DNA from: a virus
Taxonomy: Duplodnaviria > Heunggongvirae > Uroviricota > Caudoviricetes
Direction: 5' to 3' (one strand)
DNA: 12,086 nucleotides
IMG/VR virus record: IMGVR_UViG_3300029517_000086
The notes under the pieces were generated by a model, which was given only the letters and a program-made list of their open reading frames with translations, had not been told where the DNA came from and searched no databases. Numbering within the stretch: the first letter of the stretch is position 1; every line of letters begins with the position of its first letter. Positions 4,751 through 12,086 of the stretch are shown piece after piece. The position numbers and the translations under genes were made by a program.

Positions 4751-5004
4751 AACTATTTCCTTCTTGGCTATATGAAAACACCAAGATACCACCGAGCCTG
4801 AAGTGGTGAAAAGACAGGCACATAACAGCTAAGTATTTTCAACCAGAGAGAATCCTTAGCGTTGTGGTGAATGCGGCTCAGCGCACGCGGGTTAAGGTTG
4901 AGGCTGACAGTCGACCTTCTGTGGATACCCACCCGTCTGGTGTGCAACCTTCGCCAGGCACCGGGAGGCACCCGGCACCACAACTTTATGCTGTGTGTAG
5001 TCTT

Positions 5005-5051
5005 GACGGTACCAGTTTGTACCCTTGCTTCCGGCTGGTACCGTCCTTTTT
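5005..5051 (+). terminator. Strong rho-independent terminator at the end of a GC-rich non-coding stretch
   Basis: Perfect 11-bp inverted repeat gacggtaccag (5005-5015) / ctggtaccgtc (5035-5045) around a 19-nt loop, followed by c-ttttt (5046-5051). The minus-strand reading has no T-run. Confidence 0.65.
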
Positions 5052-5269
5052 ACAAAACAGAGAAGAGCATCACCGGACGACGGGCTCATAACCCAATCCA
5101 TCCAGGCGGCTGCCACCGCAGGTGTTCTTCACTGTTTTGTGGAGAAACTAACCGCCCCTACGGGGGCATTCATGGAAATGTAATTGACTCGACTCAATAA
5201 TCGCCGGACGGTGAGGGCTTCCTTTTACCCGAATTCAGCGCGGTGCAGCGCATATACGTGGAGAACAAA

Positions 5270-5806
5270 ATGTCATTTATTAAAACTTTTTCTGGGAAGC
5301 ATTTTTATTATGACAGGATAAATAAAGACGACATCGTTATTAACGATATCGCGGTTTCCCTTTCAAATATCTGCCGCTTTGCCGGTCATCTTTCGCACTT
5401 CTACAGCGTCGCCCAACATGCGGTTCTTTGCAGCCAGCTGGTGCCGCAGGAATTTGCTTTTGAAGCGTTAATGCATGATGCAACAGAAGCGTATTGCCAG
5501 GACATTCCCGCACCACTGAAACGCCTTCTTCCTGACTATAAACGGATGGAAGAAAAAATAGACGCCGTAATCCGTGAGAAATACGGGTTACCCCCAGTTA
5601 TGAGTACACCCGTGAAATATGCCGATCTCATCATGCTGGCAACCGAACGCCGCGATCTCGGGCTTGATGATGGCTCTTTCTGGCTTGTACTGGAAGGTAT
5701 CCCGGCAACAGAGATGTTCAACGTGATTCCACTGGCACCGGGCCATGCCTACGGGATGTTTATGGAACGTTTTAAAGAGCTGCATAAGATGCATAAGCAA
5801 TCCTAA
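5270..5806 (+). CDS. HD-domain phosphohydrolase (YfdR-like 5'-deoxynucleotidase family)
   Basis: HD-domain signature residues: H in SVAQHAV and HD in LMHDATEAY. Start chosen at ATG 5270 (MSFIKTF...) with GGAG (5259-5262) upstream, rather than the ORF-track GTG at 5243. Confidence 0.8.
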   Translation: MSFIKTFSGKHFYYDRINKDDIVINDIAVSLSNICRFAGHLSHFYSVAQHAVLCSQLVPQEFAFEALMHDATEAYCQDIPAPLKRLLPDYKRMEEKIDAVIREKYGLPPVMSTPVKYADLIMLATERRDLGLDDGSFWLVLEGIPATEMFNVIPLAPGHAYGMFMERFKELHKMHKQS

Positions 5807-5860
5807 CTGCGAAATTAACTTGTGAAATAGTTTTGTAGCAAAAGAAATGAGGTTATCAAA

Positions 5861-6106
5861 ATGCTTCAAATGCTGACACTTGAGGAATGGGCTGCGGAAA
5901 AATTTAGGAGTAACCCTCCAAGTGTGTCCACATTGCGTCGTTATGCTAAGCAGAATTTATTTTGTCCACCGGCAATGAAACAAGGTCGACTATGGCGAGT
6001 ACGTGAGGACGCAGAGTTAGTTGGGGAATTAGTTACTCCTGTCATTAAGAAAAGTGATTCTATTATTCTACAAAGGATTTTAAGTAATGGCAGCCAGACC
6101 ACGTAA
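5861..6106 (+). CDS. xis: Excisionase (lambda Xis family)
   Basis: MLQMLTLEEWAAEKF...STLRRYAKQNLFCPPAMKQGRLW parallels lambda Xis MYLTLQEWNARQRRPRSLETVRRWVRECRIFPPPVKDGREY. Sits immediately upstream of int and overlaps it by 20 nt. Confidence 0.85.
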   Translation: MLQMLTLEEWAAEKFRSNPPSVSTLRRYAKQNLFCPPAMKQGRLWRVREDAELVGELVTPVIKKSDSIILQRILSNGSQTT

Positions 6107-7214
6107 GAATAATGTTTCAGTCCCGAACTTGTATCCGCTCTATAGCAGAAAAGTAAATAAAGTTTATTGGCGATATAAGCATCCAGTGACCGGGAAGTTT
6201 CATTCTTTGGGCACAAACGAAGCTGAAGCCATTGCTATTGCCACTGAGGCCAATACACGCCTAGCTGAGCAAAGAACCCGGCAGATTCTAGCTATCAGTG
6301 ACAGGATCGCAACCAGCAAAGGAAAAGCAATCACAACGTCAACCTGGTTAGATCGCTATCAAGCAATCCAGGAAGACAGACTGAAAAGTGGCGATATAAA
6401 GCTCAACACCTATAAACAGAAAGCCAAACCAGTATCCTTGCTCAGGGAACGAGCAGGACTGAAGTTGATATCAGCCGTTGATGTCAGAGATATAGCACAA
6501 TTACTTGATGAGTATATCTCTGCTGGACAGCCTAGAATGGCCCAGGTCGTAAGGTCTGTATTGATCGATGTGTTTAAGGAAGCACAGCATTACGGCGAAG
6601 TTCCACCAGGGTATAACCCTGCTCTTGCAACGAAGCAACCCAGAAGGAAAATTAGCCGTCAACGCCTCAGCCTAGAAGAATGGAAAAAAATATTCGATAT
6701 CGCAGACGCCGCTCATCGTTATATGGGAAATGCCATGCTCCTAGCTTTGGTCACTGGGCAGCGTTTAGGAGATATATCCAAAATGAAATTTAGTGATATT
6801 TGGGAGGATCATCTTCACGTCATTCAGGAAAAGACCGGGAGCAAAATCGCTATCCCTCTTTCTTTACGTTTGAATGCTATCAACTGGTGTTTACGTGATG
6901 TAGTAGCTCGCTGCCGTGACTACGCAGTCAGCCCATACTTAGTGCATTTTTTCCGTACTACATCACAGGCTGAACGTGGCGCACAGGTAAAAGCTAATAC
7001 ACTAACGATGAACTTTAGCAAGGCACGTGATCTGGCAGAAATTGATTGGGGTACTGGAACTCCTGCAACTTTTCATGAACAAAGATCTTTATCTGAACGT
7101 CTTTACAAGGAACAAGGGGTTGATACCAGAAAGTTACTGGGCCATAAAACCCAGCAGCAAACCGATCGTTACCATGATGACCGAGGCAAAGGATGGAGCA
7201 AAGTAGCGTTGTGA
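6087..7214 (+). CDS. int: Tyrosine site-specific integrase (lambda Int family)
   Basis: 375 aa. N-terminal arm-binding region (PNLYPLY...YWRYKHPVTGKFHSLG) parallels lambda Int (PNLYIRNNGYYCYRDPRTGKEFGLG). Catalytic-domain blocks LVTGQRLGDISKMKFSDI, HEQRSLSERLY and LLGHKTQQQTDRYHDDRG match the lambda Int R...HxxR...Y signature. Confidence 0.95.
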   Translation: MAARPRKNNVSVPNLYPLYSRKVNKVYWRYKHPVTGKFHSLGTNEAEAIAIATEANTRLAEQRTRQILAISDRIATSKGKAITTSTWLDRYQAIQEDRLKSGDIKLNTYKQKAKPVSLLRERAGLKLISAVDVRDIAQLLDEYISAGQPRMAQVVRSVLIDVFKEAQHYGEVPPGYNPALATKQPRRKISRQRLSLEEWKKIFDIADAAHRYMGNAMLLALVTGQRLGDISKMKFSDIWEDHLHVIQEKTGSKIAIPLSLRLNAINWCLRDVVARCRDYAVSPYLVHFFRTTSQAERGAQVKANTLTMNFSKARDLAEIDWGTGTPATFHEQRSLSERLYKEQGVDTRKLLGHKTQQQTDRYHDDRGKGWSKVAL

Positions 7215-7302
7215 GTATTTAAGAGTCCCAACGCCACCTTGAACTCACAGCCAATAGCAGTCATCATGCTATGCTAATGAACAGCAACAGGCCAATAGTT
7301 AC

Positions 7303-7785
7303 TTGATAAAAAATATGATAATCAATCAACTCAAAATCACGTATAACGACGATATTTTATCTGCACTTTCAGGAAAAGTGTTTCATGTTACTACTGCAGC
7401 TAATATGCTCCTTATAAAACAATCTGGAGCTTTGGTTCCAAATTCGGAATTATTGCAATTTTCAAGATTTGGAAATACATCTAATGGTTTTTTTAGGCAG
7501 CGCAATTGCGTGTCTTTTTTCGACTATAGATGCTATGGGACTAGATTCTGGAAAGAGCATGCTTATAAATGTTTTCCAACTCAGATCCTTAAACGCGAAC
7601 AAGGTGATAAGATTTCAATACTGTTTCTTCACGAAAGCAAGTTCGAGAAACTGATTCCATGGACTTCTTGGAAAGAAGAAAAAGCATGGGGCGAGAGGGT
7701 TGTCCCGTATGTTGAGACTGGATATAAAGGCATTGTTTCCCTAAGCGATATTACCGAAGAATTAGTTGTTGAGTTTGACTGCTAG
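7303..7785 (+). CDS. Hypothetical protein (156-160 aa), AT-rich cargo gene between int and the host junction
   Basis: Open frame of protein-like composition, no recognisable motif. Start is uncertain (TTG at 7303 or ATG at 7315), both with weak RBS. AT-rich by eye compared with the phage core. Confidence 0.5.
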   Translation: MIKNMIINQLKITYNDDILSALSGKVFHVTTAANMLLIKQSGALVPNSELLQFSRFGNTSNGFFRQRNCVSFFDYRCYGTRFWKEHAYKCFPTQILKREQGDKISILFLHESKFEKLIPWTSWKEEKAWGERVVPYVETGYKGIVSLSDITEELVVEFDC

Positions 7786-8170
7786 CAAAGGCGCACTGAT
7801 TGGTAACGACTAAAGAACATAATTAATGAATGAGACAGACAATCAATAGGATAACATTAATATTTTTCCGGCATCCGTGCCAATTGGAATATACCATTTA
7901 AAACATAGAAGCAATCCCGAATATTCATTTTCTACTCAAAGAGGATCTTTATCCCCCACTTATCTCCTCGACCCAAATTTATCCTGAGATTATCTCTCTC
8001 GTTTTCATATGGCGTGACTGTCAGTCTCAGACTTTAAGGATTTCCTAACCCCAAAAGCAGAAAATAAACATTGGGCATTAAATAACATTAAATTAAAAGT
8101 CATTACATTAATTGTATATTAGCACTAACGGTAATGTTTTTTAGATATTATTTACATCACCGCAATGATT

Positions 8171-8206
8171 CCGGCTGAGCAGAAATAATGCGTCCCGCTC
8201 AGCCGG
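8171..8206. other. 10-bp inverted repeat (hairpin) just downstream of the 1040-aa gene
   Basis: ccggctgagc (8171-8180) / gctcagccgg (8197-8206) with a 16-nt loop; no clear T-run on either strand. Confidence 0.4.
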
Positions 8207-8211
8207 ATTTG

Positions 8212-11200
8212 TCAGAGGTGTTCGAACCTAGCCACCACAGCACCTTCAATTTCTAGCACTTGATTCCAGGTCGTGGTCACCGAGCCAGTCAGAGGATCTT
8301 GACTGTCTGTCTGCCATGAGGAGTTGAAAAGCAGGCCGTCAGGATCGCTCTGCAGGTGAAGGTTGCCGAAGATACTGTTCCGGACGAGCAGGGAATAACA
8401 TCTCTCAGAAGCAAACTCCTGATAGATTCCACAGCCGTTGATTCTGATTGGCATCAGGCCTCCCGGACGCGACGACCTGTCCAGCGTGATCCCCAGTTCC
8501 GCATGCCTGTCCGCGTGGTAAATCAGTTCACGCAGGTCACTCCCTAGACGGGTGCCGAAAAATATAAGCGTAGAGTCGTCATTATCGACGGTCATCTCCC
8601 GTAAATGCTTCAGCAGTCCCTTCACGTCGCGAACGATTTCGGTCCGGAGAGGCTGCAACTGACTCAGGCCTCGGTAAACATCACGAAGCAGAGAATATTT
8701 GACGTCAGAAAGCGATGTCAGATCACCGTAGACATTGCTGTTGATCCCCCGAGCAATGATATTTTTAGGCATGGTTCCTCGAACCGACCTAGCTGTCCAT
8801 GGTATCTCCCCGTTCTCAGAGTTGCTGTAAGAAAAACGGGAAAGCAGTGCATCCTGAGCAAGCATTTCGGGCAGTTCGTGGGTCAGAGTCAGATCGGTTT
8901 TTTTCAGCCGTTCTGTATCAATCTCTGCGTTAAGAAGTTCATCATGCAGGCACTGGCTGAAAGCCAGAATATAGGCATCGAGAGTTTTATTGAAAGAAAT
9001 AATTTTCGCTTTAAAAACCATCTCAGACATTAAATATCCGTCTGGGGAACTGTCTTCACGACGTTTCATCCCATGAAGCTGATTTATAATTTGTTCCTTT
9101 CTGGAATACGTGAAGAGATTGTCATTCAGAGCATCCTGCACGCGTCGGCTGACAGGCTGCGGCCCAGCGGAAAGATAAAAAGCAATATCAGCGTAACTGC
9201 CGTACAGATTCCTTACATCTTCATAGGTTCCCATATAAATGCGACCGGTTATAGTTTCGGTTTCATTAAAGGCTGAAAAGGTTTTTATGAGGCCGGACAG
9301 CGCTTCGTACCAGCCGTTCTCATGACGATTGTTCCGGTATTCCAGCCTGATGATGCTGTCAATAATATCAGTGGCTGACTTAAATGAAGGTGTCATGCGA
9401 TCGTGTGCACCAGTAGGATAGACAAGCTCTGAATTCAGGAGTCGCTTAACAACGCTTTTAAGGGGGACATTCTTTTTCTGCCTGATATGAGAAAGAATAT
9501 AGCTTGCAGTCAACAAACGCACGTCAGCTAGGGCGTTATAAAATACCGTGTTCAGCGTCTTATTTTCTGAATATTCATTACCTCGCAGTACAGCCTGCCA
9601 GTCATGTCCTTCAGAAGTCTGCGTTAATAAGGCTGGTGTGATGAAAAAACTGTGCCAGCGGTACTGGTCAAAATGCTCTTCAAAGTTATTCCGGCCAAAC
9701 CAGAGCAACAGCATATCTGAGCTGTGTTCTGAGGCGAAACGGTCATCTTTCATGACTGCTGTTATGACTGTCTGAGCAGTGTAGAAAAGATGAGACAGCA
9801 GGCAAGCCGGGTCATTATCAGACCGTTCCCCGTTACGGTTATGAATACGTCGCCACATGTACCAGCTTTCCCATTCACCGATAAAATCTTTAACAAGCTC
9901 CCGGTGACGCAGCTCCTGGCCAACCGTCAGATTTTCTCCATACCCCGTTTTCCAGTCTATCAGCGCATGCCAGACGTGGAAAAGAGACTGAATATATTGC
10001 TGAAAATCGCCCAGCTGGCAGCTGTCGGCATCACGATACACCGAGAATGGGATGGTTAATACATTACGAAAATATTCCCCTGTGGTTTCCAAAGATTTTA
10101 CAGTAACGTGACTGAATGAGTAAAAGTCTCTATGGAATGACTGGCTGAATGTCACCATAAATCCTGTATCACTACATTCATCAATATAGTTACCGTCAGC
10201 ATACCGGAAACTTTTTTTCAACGTTGTGTAGGTGTCCACCAGCCTGTCTGTTGCACTGATGAAGGAACTAATATTTCTGTCTTCCAGAGCATCGTAGGCC
10301 TCGCCATAAAAATCACGGGTAATGTAGCGGTATTCTTTCCAGTTTTTTTTAAAACCTCTGATAAAGCATCGCCTGAACAAAAACGGCCACCAACAGGGAA
10401 AAATCACATCCGTAGATGCGAGCAGAGTTATTGTATCCTGCTTACGACCCAAGGATGGGAGTAAAATTATTTTTCCTACGCTGTTATTAACTGGTCGCAG
10501 AAATCGTAACAGAAAATTAAATAACCGCATCCGGACATCGGTAATATCTTTCCCCTCACCTAAATGATGAGGTAACAAATTCATATTCTCTTCACCTGAA
10601 ACATACCAGCGGAGGACCTCAATCCCATTGATGTAATTTTTATCGATATAATTCCCTGGGTGCTGAAGCCATGAGTTTATCCGCGAATGAAGAATGAAAT
10701 TTTCGACAATCTCTGACTGAAAATATTTTAACATAAGGCGGTCGCGTTTTTTATCGTCAAGAATATTCAGGCTTGAAATAAAAAACCATATAGATAGCAC
10801 GATGTTGAACAGCATCCAGATTAAGGCTGTAATGGCAAAAGCGGTCGTCCGGTATTTATCGCCGGCAGATGAAAATAGCCCACCAATCACTATAAATGCA
10901 GCCAGTGACAGCCCGCTGAGCCCGGCAAACATGTAACCCGAATGCAACTGATAGGCAGACTGAATATGTATGCGGGACGATTTTTTCTGAAAAAGCACGC
11001 TGATAAGGCCCACAACCAGCGGAAAAACGATCCCGATAATCGTCAGCTGAGCGCCCAGCAGGTTTGACATCCATGCCGGCAGCTCCGTAACACCTTTCAG
11101 ATAGGAAGCGGCAAAAGAATGAAATTCTGGACGAAAATATTCCGCAACAATGACTGCACCTACTGCCGTTGCCCAGAGCAACAACATGGCCTTCAGATAG

Positions 11201-11334
11201 TGCGTGGAGCAGTAAACCTGCGCTCTCTCAAGCAGACTCCAGCGATGTTTTTTATACACCGAATTACCTTTAAGGTTCCGTTTGAGATCGGCTCTGACTT
11301 TAGCTGAAAGGCGTGTAAAGAATATGCCAGACAT
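8212..11334 (-). CDS. Large membrane-anchored protein of unknown function (1040 aa): four predicted N-terminal TM helices plus a roughly 850-aa soluble domain
   Basis: Single uninterrupted 3.1-kb ORF. ATG at 11334..11332 with AGGAG 4 nt upstream. Hydrophobic helices at about residues 48-66, 92-115, 134-155 and 164-188. No nucleotide-binding, nuclease or other motif recognised by eye. Sits in the int-to-att cargo slot. Confidence 0.85.
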   Translation of the reverse strand: MSGIFFTRLSAKVRADLKRNLKGNSVYKKHRWSLLERAQVYCSTHYLKAMLLLWATAVGAVIVAEYFRPEFHSFAASYLKGVTELPAWMSNLLGAQLTIIGIVFPLVVGLISVLFQKKSSRIHIQSAYQLHSGYMFAGLSGLSLAAFIVIGGLFSSAGDKYRTTAFAITALIWMLFNIVLSIWFFISSLNILDDKKRDRLMLKYFQSEIVENFILHSRINSWLQHPGNYIDKNYINGIEVLRWYVSGEENMNLLPHHLGEGKDITDVRMRLFNFLLRFLRPVNNSVGKIILLPSLGRKQDTITLLASTDVIFPCWWPFLFRRCFIRGFKKNWKEYRYITRDFYGEAYDALEDRNISSFISATDRLVDTYTTLKKSFRYADGNYIDECSDTGFMVTFSQSFHRDFYSFSHVTVKSLETTGEYFRNVLTIPFSVYRDADSCQLGDFQQYIQSLFHVWHALIDWKTGYGENLTVGQELRHRELVKDFIGEWESWYMWRRIHNRNGERSDNDPACLLSHLFYTAQTVITAVMKDDRFASEHSSDMLLLWFGRNNFEEHFDQYRWHSFFITPALLTQTSEGHDWQAVLRGNEYSENKTLNTVFYNALADVRLLTASYILSHIRQKKNVPLKSVVKRLLNSELVYPTGAHDRMTPSFKSATDIIDSIIRLEYRNNRHENGWYEALSGLIKTFSAFNETETITGRIYMGTYEDVRNLYGSYADIAFYLSAGPQPVSRRVQDALNDNLFTYSRKEQIINQLHGMKRREDSSPDGYLMSEMVFKAKIISFNKTLDAYILAFSQCLHDELLNAEIDTERLKKTDLTLTHELPEMLAQDALLSRFSYSNSENGEIPWTARSVRGTMPKNIIARGINSNVYGDLTSLSDVKYSLLRDVYRGLSQLQPLRTEIVRDVKGLLKHLREMTVDNDDSTLIFFGTRLGSDLRELIYHADRHAELGITLDRSSRPGGLMPIRINGCGIYQEFASERCYSLLVRNSIFGNLHLQSDPDGLLFNSSWQTDSQDPLTGSVTTTWNQVLEIEGAVVARFEHL

Positions 11335-11740
11335 AGCGCTCCTGCTCTTGGGGGGAAAATCTCTCTATCATACGTCCTGTTTGTATAGTTTTCCTTTAAA
11401 AATCTCTACATTGCTTACTAGTGTTCAACTCAAACAACTTCTGGATTTACCTTATTCGGTTTTCATTTTGAGAAGAGAGATTGATGCGGAAATGCACTAA
11501 TGATGGAAGATTAATGTGGAATAAGCATTATTGTTTTGAAAGCATCCATCGATTGAACTCACAACACAAAACAGACCTAAATATTAGCGAGTATCCGCCA
11601 GCAATAATCATAAAACGCGGAGGTACCCCTGATTGGAACCTGGCAATAGAACTACCACCGGACCATCCAGCCTCCCCCAAACTACCAAGGGGTTTTGATA
11701 ACTTGTTTTGATAAAATTTTGATAACCGTTAGCAGCCTAA

Positions 11741-11769
11741 CAAAAAAACGGGAGCGTTACGCTCCCGTT
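11741..11769 (-). terminator. Rho-independent terminator of icd
   Basis: Hairpin cgggagcg-tta-cgctcccg (11749-11767), followed on the minus strand by a 7-nt U-run (plus-strand aaaaaaa at 11742-11748), about 25 nt past the icd stop. Confidence 0.7.
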
Positions 11770-11792
11770 AATGAATTTAACAAATCACCGCA

Positions 11793-12086
11793 TTACATGT
11801 TTTCGATGATTGCGTCACCAAACTCTGAACATTTCAGCAGCTTAGCGCCGTCCATCAGACGTTCGAAGTCATAGGTTACGGTCTTGGCGTTGATCGCGCC
11901 TTCCATACCTTTAACAATTAAGTCAGCCGCTTCAGTCCAACCCATGTGGCGTAACATCATCTCAGCGGAGAGAATAATAGAGCCAGGGTTTACTTTGTCC
12001 TGACCGGCGTATTTCGGCGCAGTACCGTGGGTGGCTTCAAACAGGGCGCATTCGTCACCGATGTTTGCACCAGGGGCGATACCGAT
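11793..12086 (-). CDS. icd: Isocitrate dehydrogenase (NADP), 3' portion (C-terminal 97 codons plus stop)
   Basis: Minus-strand translation gives ...[90 protein letters not shown], the E. coli Icd C-terminus as recalled. The gene continues beyond the window end. Confidence 0.95.

Follow-up and report, generated by a model that had tools for sequence, protein, structure and literature searches.

Gene order and coordinates of the locus

The window, by which we mean the whole stretch of 12,086 nucleotides under study, belongs to an e14-like prophage of the lambdoid type which has inserted at icd; positions 11793–12086 are taken up by the 3' end of this gene. The gene order comprises cI/cro-like regulators, yfdR, xisE, intE (6087–7214, plus strand), a gene encoding a 156-aa protein (WP_024232540.1), a convergent gene encoding a 1040-aa protein (WP_024232539.1; 8212–11334, minus strand) and, finally, icd. 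Megablast detects the section from 7200 to 8250 with 99.8–100% identity in 10 out of 5,426 complete E. coli genomes, where it is always chromosomal. In the program-made list of open reading frames the gene of interest starts with TTG and spans 7303–7785 (plus strand, 160 aa), which is the frame singled out by an earlier reading of the letters alone (henceforth the sequence-only reading). It contains an in-frame ATG at 7315 which is used as start codon by RefSeq/PGAP and leads to 156 aa. Since PGAP selects this ATG, since the start codon has the same position in all close orthologues and since the stretch homologous to DNA of other genomes starts ahead of it, the real coding sequence, designated ORF156 in the following, is on these grounds 7315–7785, with the stop codon at 7783–7785. 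This assignment is backed by PGAP, homologues, dN/dS values, an AlphaFold2 model and structural matches to ADP-ribosyltransferases (ARTs).

The GC content of the coding sequence amounts to 0.372 (GC3 0.338) compared to 0.531 within the first 3 kb of the window, which hold phage genes, and 0.45 within intE, so that the impression of a foreign composition, gained by eye in the sequence-only reading, holds. The same applies to the start, which had been called weak: no Shine-Dalgarno sequence is present ahead of the ATG (TTGATAAAAAAT-ATG). Such a sequence is likewise absent from the Pantoea, Morganella and Salmonella orthologues, while some distant homologues do possess one. Because the feature is common to the enterobacterial orthologues, the missing Shine-Dalgarno sequence is, as judged from this comparison, a property of the cassette and not a sign of decay.

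DNA homology with ORF156 loci elsewhere covers 7313–7790 and reaches upstream to 7275 in Morganella and to 7262 in Pantoea-type cassettes; at the other end, the homology of the E. coli sequence stops 5 bp past the ORF156 stop codon. ORF156 thereby appears to move as a coding sequence plus a leader of about 50–75 bp. The leader carried with the cassette (7262–7314, plus strand) contains a conserved block, GCCAATAG ... TGCTATGCTAAT, which is kept in cassettes with three different upstream contexts. Within this block, TGcTATGCT, located some 40 nt ahead of the ATG, resembles an extended -10 element and may serve as promoter. A generic two-hexamer scan detected no sigma-70 site in the leader, and a generic scan for sigma-70 promoters and terminators gave nothing convincing for ORF156.

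The spacer separating ORF156 from the 1040-aa gene had been described as AT-rich and 425 bp long; it is indeed AT-rich (GC 0.359) and its length is 426 bp (7786–8211). The three ACATTAA motifs reported for it are found at 7854, 8085 and 8105, i.e. all within 7791–8116. Three copies compare with 0.17 expected, and about 0.0008 of mononucleotide shuffles reach this number, so that the motif is enriched in the spacer; its occurrence in the whole window (5 found, 2.0 expected) is not significant, as 11 of 200 shuffles reach 5. The spacer holds no antitoxin-like small ORF of more than 36 aa, gives no Rfam match below an E-value of 0.3 and shows no remnant of the 472-aa gene which accompanies some relatives of ORF156 (see below). 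Its RNA fold z-score of -2.8 is largely due to a hairpin at 8170–8207, downstream of the 1040-aa gene.

ORF156 is under purifying selection and belongs to a wide family

A word-indexed search for close homologues of the ORF156 protein yielded 32 clusters which are 42–99% identical to it and almost all of which measure 153–156 aa. The profile and structure searches suggested in the sequence-only reading were carried out as well. The structural matches are to the ART fold, as described in the next section, and the profile search against 1.84 billion representatives returned 569 clusters at E ≤ 1e-3, 297 of them at E ≤ 1e-10, nearly all between 150 and 200 aa long. Ten longer members (202–295 aa) carry extensions without any Pfam domain and therefore provide no functional hint. 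According to a genome scan, the family is present in Gamma- and Betaproteobacteria, Desulfobacterota, Acidobacteriota, Planctomycetota, Gemmatimonadota and Elusimicrobia.

Pairwise dN/dS values among the E. coli, Pantoea, Morganella and Salmonella copies range from 0.09 to 0.31, and ORF156 behaves in these sequence comparisons as a real gene under purifying selection. That ORF156 might be a degraded frame, one of the options named by the sequence-only reading, was consequently rejected in view of its conserved length, the low dN/dS, the invariance of catalytic-type residues and a confident fold prediction. That the frame arose by chance or is decaying within AT-rich junk DNA, as the AT-richness, the missing Shine-Dalgarno sequence and the merely hypothetical annotation might have suggested, has practically no probability left in the face of hundreds of length-conserved homologues.

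The family is absent from 50,697 genomes of isolated phages and nearly absent from plasmids; in IMG/VR its members are mostly found at prophage ends. The absence from isolated phages and the near-absence from plasmids fit a host- or prophage-side cargo better than a counter-defence gene of lytic phages.

Predicted fold and active site

Sequence searches with the ORF156 protein in Pfam, NCBIfam, PHROGs, PADLOC and the PDB returned nothing. A Pfam scan of 78 diverse family members gave marginal matches only, namely to DarT in 2 of the 78 (E 0.034) and to DUF7002 in a single one (E 0.0078). The lone match of the family profile among PDB sequences, to eS26, was discarded as spurious. AlphaFold2, supplied with the family alignment, predicts a single domain with a pLDDT of 92.7 and a pTM of 0.88. 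The best 19 Foldseek matches of this model in the PDB are all ARTs, with E-values no better than 0.02, and two phage proteins labelled “DarT” and “RNA 2'-phosphotransferase” are among the matches to viral models (BFVD). The modelled protein shows the split β-sheet of the ART fold, recognisable by structure comparison, and is structurally closest, as far as the model tells, to the DarT/Tpt1/DUF952 branch.

Three segments carry most of the conserved residues. The first one (residues 20–43, G-K-V-F-H24-V-T26-x3-N30-x3-I34-x3-G38-x3-P-N43; 7372–7443, plus strand) comprises strand β1 and helix α1 and constitutes the predicted NAD+-binding motif; among the 78 members H24 is conserved in 77, T26 and I34 in 74 each and N30 in 45. 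The second one (residues 59–72, [FY]-F-R61-x-[RK]63-G-C65-V-S67-x-F69-D70-[YL]-R72; 7489–7530, plus strand) consists of a short helix and strand β2 and provides the aromatic residue predicted to stack on nicotinamide as well as conserved Arg, Ser and Asp residues. Here, D70 is present in 78/78 members, F69 in 72, S67 in 71 (Cys in the remaining 7), R61 in 62 (Lys in a further 6) and R72 in 70. The third one (residues 129–139, V-V-P131-Y-V-E134-x-G136-x-x-G139; 7699–7731, plus strand) forms the end of a long ARTT-like loop and the start of the following strand and includes E134, which is found in all 78 members, while P131 and G136 each occur in 75. D70 and E134 are hence invariant, and H24, T26, I34, F60, S67, F69, L113, V130, P131 and G136 reach at least 90%. 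Conserved cysteines are also observed within the family.

In the model H24 is located on strand 22–27, S67, F69 and D70 on strand 65–70, and E134 opens strand 134–138 after the loop formed by residues 116–133. This placement corresponds in the model to the layout of the catalytic positions of ARTs, i.e. a His on β1, an aromatic residue and a Ser on β2 and an acidic residue after the ARTT loop, the positional equivalence being judged from secondary structure and the motif aligned by hhalign. By analogy with ART glutamates such as E160 of DarT, E134 is the candidate catalytic glutamate, and F69 probably is the counterpart of DarT Y71 on the VPFYF strand.

The hhalign comparison was made with 13 DarT sequences, one from a sister prophage and 12 from plasmids. 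It aligns solely 26 N-terminal columns, SGKVFHVTTAANMLLIKQSGALVPNS with h-r-n-a-YHFTSVDNLESIIETGLFSTNQ (E 1.4e-4, probability 52%). In Thermus DarT, H13, T15 and N19 bind the adenine-proximal ribose and the backbone of I14 binds the nicotinamide amide; Y71 provides a stacking contact to nicotinamide, and catalysis depends on R51 and E160 (PMC9967889). H24, V25, T26 and N30 of ORF156 are in the same register as H13, I14, T15 and N19; in addition, ORF156 possesses an aromatic-rich next strand, the conserved R61 and the invariant E134. The alignment indicates that ORF156 keeps a DarT-type H-x-T-x3-N motif with predicted NAD+-binding function, and its putative NAD+ pocket is apparently competent in sequence and model alike. 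The median pI of the family is 6.4 (7.65 for the E. coli protein), and this near-neutral value makes a protein or a small molecule a slightly likelier target than DNA or RNA.

Comparison with characterised ADP-ribosyltransferases

DarT (DUF4433, PF14487), the ssDNA ADP-ribosyltransferase toxin of DarTG, measures about 200–215 aa whereas ORF156 has 156 aa. The Pfam DarT model gives no match to the ORF156 protein at E ≤ 1, and the sequence link between both is restricted to the 26 profile columns mentioned above. DarT lacks the GCVSxFD[YL]R signature of ORF156, the invariant Asp included; conversely, it has a basic DNA-binding groove (PMC9967889), a character missing in the ORF156 family with its pI of about 6.4. 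No macrodomain or NADAR antitoxin gene is located beside ORF156 in any locus examined; within the stretch fetched, a macrodomain gene is annotated beside 11 of the 13 retrieved plasmid and prophage DarT genes. By sequence, size and partner gene alike, ORF156 thus falls outside the DarT family.

Neither the RNA 2'-phosphotransferase Tpt1/KptA nor DUF952 (CC0527) shows a sequence match to ORF156, and the Tpt1/KptA model PF01885 matches neither ORF156 nor the 78 family members. The N-terminal winged-helix lobe of Tpt1/KptA with its R-H-R-R tetrad is missing in ORF156, which forms a single domain of 156 aa. Moreover, the invariant glutamate of ORF156 is typical of true transferases, in contrast to the H-H-h motif of the Tpt1 clade (PMC9967889).

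In concept ORF156 resembles AcrIF11 and the T4 proteins Alt, ModA and ModB, which are likewise small, antitoxin-less ARTs on a mobile element with a specific protein target. There is, however, neither detectable sequence similarity nor top-ranking structural similarity to any of these. Unlike AcrIF11 and other solo phage ARTs, ORF156 does not occur in genomes of isolated phages and is not adjoined by an aca-type regulator. PADLOC-DB v2 contains no family matching ORF156 or the 1040-aa protein at E ≤ 1, and the literature searched mentions neither the protein accessions nor a solo defence ART of the ORF156 type. Fold and chemistry as such are familiar. Neither Pfam, NCBIfam and PADLOC nor the literature searched, however, describes this sequence family, its minimal architecture devoid of an antitoxin or its signature, [FY]FRx[RK]GCVSxFD[YL]R ... 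VVPxVExG.

The intE–icd slot and further genomic contexts

Homologues of intE are present in about 500 E. coli genomes, and their homology ends about 30 bp past the stop codon. What follows downstream of intE differs between sister prophages: lit, ymfE and ymfD in K-12, a gene for DarT(+HD) accompanied by one for a macrodomain protein (DarT–DarG) in APEC O2-211, genes for an AAA_21 ATPase and an HNH endonuclease in SCU-204, and a gene for a single 348-aa hypothetical protein in Ecol_545. Judged by its contents, the intE–icd slot is a variable defence hotspot, and ORF156 occupies the very place which elsewhere holds lit, the DarT/macrodomain pair or the AAA_21/HNH pair. Lit is a prophage-encoded abortive-infection enzyme. 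Being a peptidase, it is unrelated to the ART-fold protein ORF156, yet its position in an e14-like prophage is the same, and its presence therefore creates a functional expectation for the occupants of this slot.

Outside E. coli the surroundings of ORF156 relatives vary widely. In two Pseudoalteromonas genomes the gene lies directly upstream of GajA/GajB (Gabija), in a member of the Gemmatimonadales it is convergent with a PDC-M23B/HamB-like helicase (Hachiman-like), and in a further case it is located beside EcoRII. Other copies are found after lambdoid tail-fibre genes, after the primase of a P4-like satellite (Salmonella), between an integrase fragment and a DUF2971 gene (Morganella), among Ea47 and DUF2971 accessory genes of a Citrobacter prophage and in a colicin/Tlde1 toxin island (Pantoea). 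The association of the family with defence islands is, however, a qualitative one, because the remaining neighbours are simply housekeeping genes; many distant homologues lie in ordinary housekeeping or metabolic surroundings.

No neighbour family recurs in more than two loci, either in an all-versus-all BLASTP comparison of the neighbours at 43 loci (about 35 of them non-redundant) or when 111 neighbours were scanned against Pfam and PADLOC. Accordingly, no conserved second gene in tight linkage, as is generic for type II and type IV toxin–antitoxin systems, was found for ORF156. Among the options of the sequence-only reading it is that of an independent accessory gene which agrees with these data, ORF156 being a self-contained cassette in many unrelated contexts.

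Proposed role of ORF156

We favour, with moderate confidence, the reading that ORF156 is a functional, mobile single-gene cassette encoding an ART-fold enzyme with intact active site which acts in conflicts between mobile elements, most likely by phage exclusion. The protein would bind NAD+ and, during such a conflict, would either ADP-ribosylate a specific target or cleave NAD+ there; the most likely outcome would be the prophage-encoded exclusion of other, superinfecting phages. The lysogen itself might be protected, without any antitoxin, by narrow target specificity and low expression, the latter being expected because a Shine-Dalgarno sequence is missing and the putative extended -10-like promoter is weak. 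To our knowledge, expression of an ART without antitoxin is unusual for a defence toxin, as both DarT and CmdT need one, and by this analogy the solitary state of ORF156 would count against phage exclusion. Its role in the conflict could be one of defence or of anti-defence.

ARTs are recurrent weapons in bacterial conflict, as exemplified by DarT acting on DNA, CmdT on mRNA and AcrIF11 on Cascade. We know of no characterised defence ART that manages without an antitoxin. Tentatively, and with less confidence than in the role just proposed, we put forward the broader idea that ORF156 founds a family of minimal, antitoxin-less ARTs. On its own, each member would be a one-gene module of immunity or counter-immunity; in addition, it could be plugged in as exchangeable first gene of the widespread defence-island system involving the 472-aa gene. 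These ARTs would combine a DarT-like NAD pocket with the distinct constellation H24 / S67-F69-D70 / E134 and with a new macromolecular target. If true, the repertoire of conflict ARTs would gain a new branch of about 570 clusters which Pfam, NCBIfam and PADLOC all lack, and one would have to ask how a lysogen can live with an ART enzyme that has no antitoxin. ORF156 is small and resides in E. coli, which makes it easy to test.

Alternative explanations

Among the alternatives, a counter-defence function survives best, although we regard it as rather unlikely. ORF156 would then, in the manner of AcrIF11, ADP-ribosylate and thereby silence a host defence protein so that the mobile element can establish itself or persist. 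A precedent exists in AcrIF11 itself, reportedly a solitary ART of about 130 aa which is encoded by phages and plasmids and acts as anti-CRISPR. ORF156 is similarly small and solitary, lacks an antitoxin and resides on prophages, a P4-like satellite and islands; its near-neutral pI would suit a protein target, and the adjacency to Gabija or restriction–modification genes could equally mean anti-defence loci.

A somewhat smaller chance is given to the view that the E. coli gene is an orphaned module of a two-gene operon, being either inert or active in a reduced mode. The 76–80% identical cassettes of the Pantoea type carry, 105 bp downstream on the same strand, a gene encoding a 472-aa protein, and this pair occurs in at least three upstream contexts (loci L004, L013/14 and L068–L072). 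The 472-aa protein contains no Pfam domain and is unrelated to the 1040-aa protein as well as to the E. coli spacer. Its family comprises at least 821 clusters; in Yersinia, Xanthomonas and Cupriavidus it is located in defence islands, with an upstream gene of 588 aa, of 445 aa or none. Such variable upstream partners, the 156-aa ART included, suggest swappable first genes, and as far as gene order can tell, the ART is among those able to fill the first position of a 472-aa unit. The end of the E. coli homology 5 bp after the ART stop codon would be in keeping with the loss of a second gene. Most copies of the ART, however, that of E. coli included, are solo: Morganella, Salmonella, Citrobacter and E. 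ruysiae as well as about 25 distant copies are devoid of the 472-aa gene, which makes the solo state the commoner one. Furthermore, two Pantoea allii genomes have a 472-aa gene split into 290 and 176 aa next to an intact ART, and in the E. coli protein the conserved residues are intact while dN/dS is low versus solo and paired copies alike.

We consider it improbable that ORF156 is a small-molecule-modifying or housekeeping ART, i.e. an Arr-like detoxifying or NAD+-metabolising enzyme outside phage conflict. Arr rifampicin ARTs are similar to ORF156 in size, and a small, solitary protein in no need of an antitoxin, with near-neutral pI, conserved cysteines and many distant homologues among metabolic neighbours, would be compatible with such a role. 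Against it stand the scattered distribution of a horizontally mobile gene over prophage and island hotspots and the lack of any match to the Arr Pfam model or an Arr structure; besides, the nearest folds are those of nucleic-acid- and protein-modifying ARTs.

Finally, the sequence-only reading had placed emphasis on ORF156 as a possible second component of a cargo module formed with the adjacent large membrane protein, a proposal which we now deem highly unlikely. In its favour, both genes stand next to each other, in convergent orientation, at one hotspot in each of the 10 E. coli carrier genomes, and both encode orphan proteins without assigned function. The convergent orientation, however, rules out an operon. 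In addition, each gene has a homology block of its own, 7262–7790 for ORF156 and its leader and 8117–11513 for the 1040-aa gene, the latter being shared, at 88%, with a Pantoea ICE, and the 326-bp junction between them (7791–8116) is present in no E. coli genome other than the ten carriers. The co-occurrence check proposed along with this idea was run in both directions. With the exception of the same E. coli prophage, phmmer detected no 1040-aa homologue in about 40 loci harbouring ORF156 relatives, nor did any of five 1040-aa loci contain an ORF156-like sequence in any frame, so that the two are found together in this E. coli prophage lineage only. Because of the separate homology blocks and the lack of co-occurrence elsewhere, ORF156 and the 1040-aa gene are, by the comparisons at hand, two unrelated cassettes side by side.

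The description of the large neighbour as a membrane protein was borne out, as it is predicted to start with about four N-terminal hydrophobic helices which are followed by about 850 soluble residues. Its family comprises 116 clusters, mostly from Enterobacterales, and homologues occur alone on ICEs or plasmids beside an integrase fragment, GmrSD/HEPN, McrBC or an IncFII replicon. The 1040-aa membrane protein therefore merits study on its own.

The slot located 3' of intE in e14-like prophages (7244-11790 in the window; compared in L049-L052) varies strongly in its contents and is a potential source of new defence genes. Between intE and icd, K-12 carries lit/ymfE/ymfD, APEC O2-211 a gene for a 448-aa DarT-HD domain fusion together with one for a 413-aa macrodomain protein, SCU-204 genes for an AAA_21 ATPase and an HNH protein, and Ecol_545 solely the gene of a single 348-aa hypothetical protein.

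In the present window, the cassette of ORF156, which encodes the 156-aa protein with ADP-ribosyltransferase (ART) fold, is separated from that of the 1040-aa protein by an AT-rich junction of 326 bp (7791-8116; GC content 0.344) which, among E. coli genomes, is present only in the ten, out of 5,426 complete ones, that carry this region. The junction contains a 10-nt direct repeat, ATAACATTAA, whose copies at 7851 and 8082 lie 231 bp apart. ACATTAA occurs a third time at 8105, and positions 7948 and 7978 mark the two copies of an imperfect direct repeat 19 nt in length. The junction harbours no open reading frame longer than 36 aa and gives no match to Rfam.

The 1040-aa protein gene (8212-11334, minus strand) belongs to a module extending from 8117 to 11513. 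The N-terminal part of its product contains about four transmembrane helices (residues 45-67, 89-118, 132-158 and 162-193), the soluble part about 850 residues; the protein matches no model of Pfam, PADLOC or NCBIfam. The family to which it belongs comprises 116 clusters, and its members are carried singly by ICEs and plasmids, where they neighbour McrBC genes, GmrSD/HEPN genes or the IncFII rep gene. The 1040-aa gene looks like an independent candidate for a single-gene defence system. Directly downstream of its stop codon, within the block conserved in Pantoea, we observe a perfect inverted repeat of 11 bp (TCCGGCTGAGC / GCTCAGCCGGA; 8170-8207) with a loop of 16 nt, which is probably the terminator of this gene; no T-run follows the repeat.

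In the Pantoea-type cassettes the ART gene is followed by a gene encoding a 472-aa protein (6576-7994 in locus L070, 4486-5901 in locus L004). The family of this protein, to which members in L075, L077 and L079 also belong, is very large (at least 821 clusters) and uncharacterised, and spans Yersinia, Burkholderia, Cupriavidus, Xanthomonas and Pseudomonas at 51-79% identity. Its members lie in defence islands, where the upstream partner changes: ART156 in some cases, in others a protein of 588 aa or one of 445 aa, or no partner at all. In two Pantoea allii genomes the gene is broken into parts of 290 aa and 176 aa.

In a single viral contig (L073), the gene of the ART homologue is overlapped at its start by a gene (5555-5953) for a 132-aa protein with a double zinc ribbon, and P0091, an ORF156-family member of 266 aa, bears an N-terminal extension with a CxxC...CxxC pattern. 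A zinc ribbon may be an occasional accessory of ORF156-family ARTs. The Pfam model PF22531 (DUF7002) weakly matches both residues 12-60 at the N-terminus of the E. coli DarT (E = 0.0015) and a single member of the ORF156 family (E = 0.0078); DUF7002 may represent a further ART family with the common H-x-T NAD-binding motif.

Elsewhere in the same prophage, PGAP annotates a frameshifted hypothetical gene immediately 5' of yfdR (window 4864-5183, corresponding to 9665-9984 in L001).
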